This document shows positions 23,619 through 23,843 of a DNA stretch of 64,000 bases, in pieces. Source of the DNA: Ostrea edulis (taxonomy: Eukaryota); contig NC_079164.1 in assembly GCF_947568905.1 (NCBI RefSeq), forward strand, positions 46,004,001 through 46,068,000, read 5' to 3'. The notes below the pieces were generated by a model that saw only the letters and a program-made list of their open reading frames with translations, ran no database searches and was not told the DNA's origin. Both the position numbers and the translations under genes were made by a program. Every line of letters begins with the position of its first letter. Position 1 is the first letter of the stretch.

Positions 23619-23843
23619 ATGGGCAAGACTGTGACATTTTCAGACAAGAAAACGATTATCTATATTCCCTATGAAGATCGAAAGGGGGAATGGATGACCA
23701 TGGCTTTGGACAGATATCGTTTTCAAAGAAGAATACATCATGCATCAAAAGTTTTAAATCCTATACTGGAGAAAAATGTACAAATAATGCGTACTCAATT
23801 TCATACACAAAACTTGGAAACCCATAATGTTAAAGATCTGTAA
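23619..23843 (+). CDS. GADD34/PPP1R15 C-terminal-like (ICP34.5/DP71L-type) PP1 regulatory protein, 74 aa
   Basis: KTVTF (RVxF), then RKGEWMTMALDRYRFQRRI, then KVLNPIL. First in-frame ATG at 23619. Confidence 0.85.
   Translation: MGKTVTFSDKKTIIYIPYEDRKGEWMTMALDRYRFQRRIHHASKVLNPILEKNVQIMRTQFHTQNLETHNVKDL

Follow-up and report, generated by a model that had tools for sequence, protein, structure and literature searches.

A Polinton in the Ostrea edulis genome carries a short DP71L-like gene for a candidate PP1/eIF2alpha adaptor

Introduction

Large DNA viruses are known to encode adaptors that join protein phosphatase 1 (PP1) to eIF2alpha. The short form of African swine fever virus (ASFV) DP71L (9NB9) is about 70 amino acids (aa) long and contains only a PP1 motif and an eIF2alpha motif, whereas herpes simplex virus (HSV) ICP34.5 and canarypox CNPV231, the latter traced to bird CReP (PMC13712846), hold the same two motifs in longer proteins of large lytic DNA viruses. 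The host proteins PPP1R15A (GADD34) and PPP1R15B (CReP) share the C-terminal core (Pfam family PF10488) and have, in addition, an endoplasmic reticulum (ER)-targeting helix, PEST repeats and a long N-terminal region. Here we describe an intronless 74-aa open reading frame (ORF) with PPP1R15/DP71L-like features inside a Polinton/Maverick element of Ostrea edulis, within a stretch of 64,000 nucleotides that was analysed as a whole and is referred to as the window (assembly GCF_947568905.1, contig NC_079164.1, positions 46,004,001 to 46,068,000).

Accessory genes described in adintoviruses and Polintons include Oncoid, Bcl2, IAP, PLA2X and GasderminX (PMC8502044), and the 74-aa ORF resembles these in being a putative host-manipulating gene of animal Polintons. 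A PP1/eIF2alpha adaptor is not named in the text or supplement of PMC8502044, and the 4-kb supplement of PMC11131425 contained no match. We found no paper joining Polinton/Maverick with PPP1R15/GADD34; subscription journals and Repbase were outside the scope of that search, and a prior mention is possible. A published table of 391 family members may also include element-borne proteins (bioRxiv 2025.02.28.640897).

Results

The 74-aa ORF contains the two motifs expected of a PP1/eIF2alpha adaptor. RVxF is the PP1-docking consensus, and KTVTF, of RVxF type, occupies residues 3–7 and aligns with KKVTF of CReP; RKGEWMTMALDRYRFQRRI occupies residues 21–39. When RKGEWMTMALDRYRFQRRI was set against the consensus that Rojas 2015 gave for eIF2alpha binding, Rx[Gnl]x1-2Wxxx[Arlv]x[Dn][Rg]xRFxx[Rlvk][Ivc] (quoted in PMC5346070), all preferred positions were matched, as they were in 45 of 118 homologs. 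Over all six frames of the window, a strict and a looser version of the motif pattern had one match each, and 200 triplet shuffles gave none, which rules out a chance motif. Across 35 aligned homologs W25, D31 and R32 were invariant and F7 was kept in at least 90%. The ORF also retains R21, W25, F35 and I39, whose CReP equivalents (R658, W662, F672 and I676) are reported to contact the PP1 pocket or G-actin (PMC10743859), together with L46 and L50, which correspond to the leucines of DP71L LSAVL that are both required for function (PMC5346070). The start context is strong, with A at −3 and G at +4.

PF10488 (PP1c_bdg) was the sole Pfam family matched by the ORF (E 1.3e-5), at 25.4 bits against a curated gathering cut-off of 26.1, and a 95%-identical relative bears a precomputed PF10488 label. 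In the genome, 72 matches lie above the same cut-off. The best sequence matches in the PDB were DP71L (9NB9, E 3.7e-5) and PPP1R15B (4V0U, E 9.2e-5), followed by PPP1R15A. The predicted monomer consists of an extended N-terminal part and a long single helix from residue 24 (mean predicted local distance difference test score 84.5). Judged by its sequence, the ORF has every feature of the PPP1R15/DP71L family except a score above the Pfam cut-off. A preliminary description of this DNA, made from its letters, had reported KTVTF and an exact eIF2alpha-binding motif in a 74-aa ORF, had assigned it to the PPP1R15/DP71L family and had called it a DP71L-like module reduced to its functional part. The translation and the consensus bear out the first of these claims, the Pfam and PDB searches agree with the second, and the absence of the host N-terminal regions from a 74-aa protein with both motifs agrees with the third. 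The profile search that it proposed gave PF10488 with a score just under the cut-off.

The likeness to DP71L extends beyond size and motif content. From the F of the docking motif to the R of the eIF2alpha motif the spacing is 14 in both proteins (F18 to R32 in DP71L), compared with 15 in CReP, 20 in GADD34 and 17 in the O. edulis host gene; in the 95 of 118 homologs in which it could be measured, a spacing of 14 occurred in 58 of 84 short and 3 of 11 long homologs. Like DP71L, the ORF has an LxxxL after the motif, has no RARA and lacks the CReP Gly654 bulge, and it is on Gly654 that the one-residue gap of the HMMER alignment falls. Absence of this bulge is reported to tighten DP71L binding (bioRxiv 2025.02.28.640897). 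The ORF differs from DP71L in having GEW rather than GPW and in its carrier, an integrating Polinton in an animal genome. With PPP1R15A and PPP1R15B it shares the C-terminal core, and it lacks their ER-targeting helix, PEST repeats and long N-terminal region.

Polinton/Maverick elements are recognized by AGTAGT-like terminal inverted repeats, a 6-bp target-site duplication and a length of 15–25 kb. The element that carries the ORF, 1.2 kb inside its left end, has terminal inverted repeats of 214 nt with 98% identity, the 6-bp duplication, a length in this range, a protein-primed DNA polymerase B (PolB), a retroviral-type integrase and a capsid module (Table 1). The ORF had been proposed to be Polinton-encoded, and it indeed lies in a complete element with inverted repeats, CTTCTG on both sides and the core genes.

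To assess selection we used a 50-codon core in 31 distinct natural sequences, the host exon and two frameshifted copies having been excluded from 34. The median ratio of nonsynonymous to synonymous differences (pN/pS) was 0.30 over 186 unsaturated pairs, which are not independent of one another; no pair reached 1, and the corrected omega was 0.23. Dropping the five residues that had been used for picking sequences gave a median of 0.33, while the shifted frames gave 1.62 and 1.70. The 74-aa frame is under purifying selection. In a comparison of the window copy with two close sister elements, silent-site differences were 16–49% in ten other genes and 61% and 77% in the gene that occupies the slot of the ORF, which is only 52% identical. 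The window copy appears to have been exchanged relative to its sisters; the simplest reading is that one version of the gene replaced the other with its function kept, 50 codons being a small sample.

The gene is present in many copies. A homolog search over the 895-Mb genome gave 150 scored matches from 183 candidates, which is a lower bound. Twelve of the at least 150 matches, the window copy included, were 97–100% identical and the remainder 39–59%, and a stop codon was present in five of the 150. Six copies that were compared are 98.9–99.7% identical to the window element over long aligned blocks, and all six have the 74-aa ORF unchanged, though some have breaks in core genes. The window Polinton family is young.

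We then took about 20 kb around each of 19 divergent loci, hand-picked for variety and thus not a random sample, and found Polinton core genes within about 10 kb at 16 of them (10 of 10 and 6 of 9). The carriers include sister elements with capsid proteins 88–97% identical and a distant class, with capsids about 31% identical, in which the gene has a different position and orientation. Starting instead from capsid genes, we found a homolog no more than 6 kb away at 56 of 58 loci of this distant class, against about 0.002 by chance. Further sister elements held an open homolog in the same slot in seven of nine cases, and the remaining two also lack the neighbouring ORF. At one carrier locus, with a capsid 37–45% identical, the copy has a stop codon and a more host-like GPWEE motif. 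Conservation of the motif in homologous elements had been set beforehand as the test on which the interpretation could fail; the motif is kept across divergent lineages, under purifying selection, and the outcome thus favours that interpretation.

A stop interrupts the PP1c_bdg copy of the divergent Polinton at L108–L109 (C3, about 94.309 Mb), whose motif, GPWEE..ARDR, is host-like; this copy may be a separate capture. PP1c_bdg matches at L069 and L075 (C10, about 47.97 and 48.87 Mb) and on C4 (about 86.03 Mb) have no Polinton core gene within 10 kb; at both C10 loci the neighbouring ORF resembles by eye that beside the C3 copy. A dense cluster of Polinton copies from several lineages lies on C8 at about 3.9–5.0 Mb.

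The PF10488 search also identified a separate host PPP1R15 locus (L052, contig C6), which has a 571-residue acidic, serine-rich upstream frame and an intron that splits KK from VHF; its terminal exon encodes RKGPWEEYARDRERF. The 20 kb around it contained no Polinton gene. The genome also has genes for the PP1 catalytic subunit. The 74-aa ORF is 45% identical to the host exon over 33 residues. A host exon or cellular PPP1R15 orthologue was ruled out as the identity of the ORF by its 74-aa length, by the at least 150 matches lying mostly in elements and by the separate, long host gene. A tree built with a quick method (119 rows by 56 columns) set the ORF apart from the host exon with a split support of 61. 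At this support, and with 68 of 115 branches open, the tree names neither a donor nor a number of origins.

Homologs were also found outside the genome. A scan of JGI metagenomes yielded three loci from 90 candidates, all of the window element family and possibly from related hosts. The three contigs have the same gene order as the window Polinton, and the longest (11.8 kb) carries a Polinton gene set and a homolog of the ORF without two motif residues. No relative of the ORF turned up among IMG/VR viral contigs, whether the query was the protein by itself or an alignment of 13 sequences. Searching 1.84 billion representatives returned 108 homologs; 79 of the 104 database homologs in the tree set were no longer than 130 aa, and several of the short ones run on into readings of the 18-nt repeat found 3' of the window ORF. 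The nearest Atlas clusters (score 0.94–0.95, recognition low) comprise 'hypothetical proteins' with viral records, one of them Preplasmiviricota, and offer a lead to a deposited, unannotated relative. Cluster look-ups of 30 homologs returned a taxon for five: three firefly proteins, one spider and one herpesvirus. The firefly proteins (P0049, P0079 and P0099) are separate. UniRef gives one of them the label 'Protein DP71L', and several copies within a single insect genome could likewise be element-borne. The herpesvirus protein (P0067) is Acipenserid herpesvirus 1 ORF48 and carries the same two motifs.

The remaining features of the element are collected in Table 1. The order of capsid, protease and ATPase genes is conserved in relatives. 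The gap between the two PolB ORFs is likely an intron, because its ends are GT..AG and it is found again in both copies and relatives; a broken polymerase as the sign of a long-dead family was rejected, as the gap resembles an intron. The CARD and two-PC4 gene adjoins the integrase, is conserved in several Polinton lineages and is possibly a second host-signalling decoy. The 146-aa PC4 ORF is in its slot in the window family and in three of nine sister stretches, and is missing from others. An ATTAAA at 24069, within the repeat array 3' of the 74-aa ORF, may serve as a poly(A) signal. Nested tandem repeats of about 800 bp lie in the right arm (37300–39111). A 147-aa cysteine-rich ORF with CxxC pairs (39608–40051, minus strand) is intact where copies cover it and has no clear Pfam family.

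Table 1. Positions of the element, its genes and the sites in and around the 74-aa ORF, numbered from the first nucleotide of the window
Feature	Position	Strand	Remarks
Polinton/Maverick element	22444..43877		21,434 bp; AGTAGT ends; target-site duplication CTTCTG both sides
Left terminal inverted repeat	22444..22656	+	
Right terminal inverted repeat	43665..43877	-	
101-aa conserved Polinton ORF	22732..23037	+	no Pfam match
146-aa ORF, hydrophobic segment then PC4 domain	23135..23575	+	Pfam
TATA-like box, candidate only	23569..23576	+	50 nt 5' of ATG
74-aa ORF, PPP1R15/DP71L-like (P0001)	23619..23843	+	
RVxF-type PP1-docking motif, K3-T4-V5-T6-F7	23625..23639	+	V5/F7 = DP71L V16/F18; aligned to PPP1R15B KKVTF
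eIF2alpha/actin-recruiting motif, R21-I39	23679..23735	+	R21, W25, F35, I39 = CReP R658, W662, F672, I676
L46-N-P-I-L50	23754..23768	+	in register with DP71L L57-SAV-L61
18-nt repeat array resembling subterminal repeats	23883..24081	+	behind the 74-aa ORF
CARD and two PC4 domains	24100..25170	+	Pfam
Retroviral-type integrase with chromodomain	25348..26502	+	rve E 2.5e-11
Major capsid protein, double jelly roll	27475..28791	+	weak Pfam match, E 0.003, under cut-off
Adenain-like protease	28788..29270	+	Pfam, over cut-off
A32/FtsK-like packaging ATPase	29380..30063	+	weak Pfam matches, under cut-off
Protein-primed DNA polymerase B, two ORFs	30783..35481	-	DNA_pol_B_2 E 2.7e-25 and 9e-21

Discussion

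We consider it probable that the 74-aa ORF is a conserved accessory Polinton gene encoding a DP71L-type PP1 adaptor that would reverse eIF2alpha-mediated shutoff, a function suggested by its conserved residues. By comparison with studied relatives, the RVxF groove of host PP1 would receive V5 and F7, contact would be extended by the linker and R21, and W25, F35, I39, L46 and L50 on the long helix would recruit G-actin and phospho-eIF2alpha. PP1 targeted in this way would dephosphorylate eIF2alpha and lift the stress-induced shutoff of translation while the element is active. Having at its N terminus neither the ER-targeting nor the PEST region of the host proteins, it would act downstream of whichever eIF2alpha kinase is active; naming PKR as the specific kinase is unsupported. 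By analogy with viruses, synthesis of capsid and polymerase may be sustained and stress-linked cell death delayed. Among four sequencing runs compared as contigs, those from one RNA library fell over 29 of 30 bins; 200 of the 223 contigs were less than 95% alike and DNA is a possible source, and none among those listed lay over the ORF.

Several observations weigh against a DP71L-type adaptor in Polintons. The PF10488 score falls short of the gathering cut-off by 0.7 bits, and a fold search against viral structures gave no match at E ≤ 0.001 among 28, with ICP34.5 at the top at only E 1.5. Three of the 19 sampled loci are without a nearby Polinton core gene. In a class with capsids 39–55% identical, none of seven loci has the gene in the 10 kb 5' of the capsid gene, and Polintons here can therefore apparently dispense with it; four further stretches likewise gave no match. 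The pairs behind the pN/pS median are, as noted, not independent. In the protein itself, Ile16 stands in place of DP71L Asp27, for which a salt bridge with PP1 is reported (bioRxiv 2025.02.28.640897). Viral PPP1R15 mimics vary in strength, and a form that binds PP1 with a defective tail can raise phospho-eIF2alpha (PMC5346070).

This last report bears on the alternative that survives best, in which the ORF protein binds PP1 but competes for it or redirects it elsewhere, so that phospho-eIF2alpha is not lowered. DP71L mutants that keep PP1 binding without the tail raise phospho-eIF2alpha (PMC5346070), and the ORF lacks both the extra eIF2-binding regions of the host proteins and an Asp27-type salt bridge. 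However, conservation across homologs is highest in the putative substrate and actin half (W25, D31, R32, F35, I39, L46 and L50), for which a pure competitor would have no use, and DP71L functions with the same minimal anatomy; we regard this alternative as unlikely. It is more improbable still that the gene is retained for the benefit of the host, as a stress-recovery capacity supplied by many copies, rather than for replication of the element. The at least 150 genomic copies with mostly open frames fit this idea, but open frames are expected because the family copies, at 98.9–99.7% identity, are young. Constraint is seen between lineages that have almost saturated silent sites, which points to selection during propagation of the element, and the host already has its own PPP1R15. 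A captured host exon carried as a non-functional passenger is barely credible: no listed RNA contig lies over the ORF, and stops or a lack of core genes are seen at some loci, but the ORF is only 45% identical to the host exon over 33 residues, differs in spacing, lacks the intron between KK and VHF and has its own start context, and purifying selection confined to the true frame largely refutes this idea.

For the DP71L-type adaptor reading, large DNA viruses already offer a precedent for the mechanism, and Polintons are already known to carry host-manipulating genes. What seems to be new is that Polintons of several lineages have a counter-defence of the DP71L type, on which selection acts and which has apparently been exchanged. 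More tentatively, and with the balance of our judgement slightly against it, minimal eIF2alpha-phosphatase adaptors may be a widespread, exchangeable counter-defence of animal Polintons; the integrated stress response would then restrict these elements as it does viruses, and they would form a large, so far unrecognised reservoir of DP71L/ICP34.5-type proteins that explains many short orphan homologs.

Animal Polintons might behave as viruses or only as transposons, and a conserved antagonist of shutoff bears on this question. It would imply that eIF2alpha kinases respond to active Polintons so strongly that selection acts, in agreement with a virus-like burst of gene expression, and it points to a testable host pathway. 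The PP1/eIF2alpha adaptor family, currently of interest to biochemists, would also gain many compact natural members. The homologs further suggest caution in annotation, since a short gene annotated as 'DP71L-like' in an animal genome may be part of a mobile element rather than of the host.
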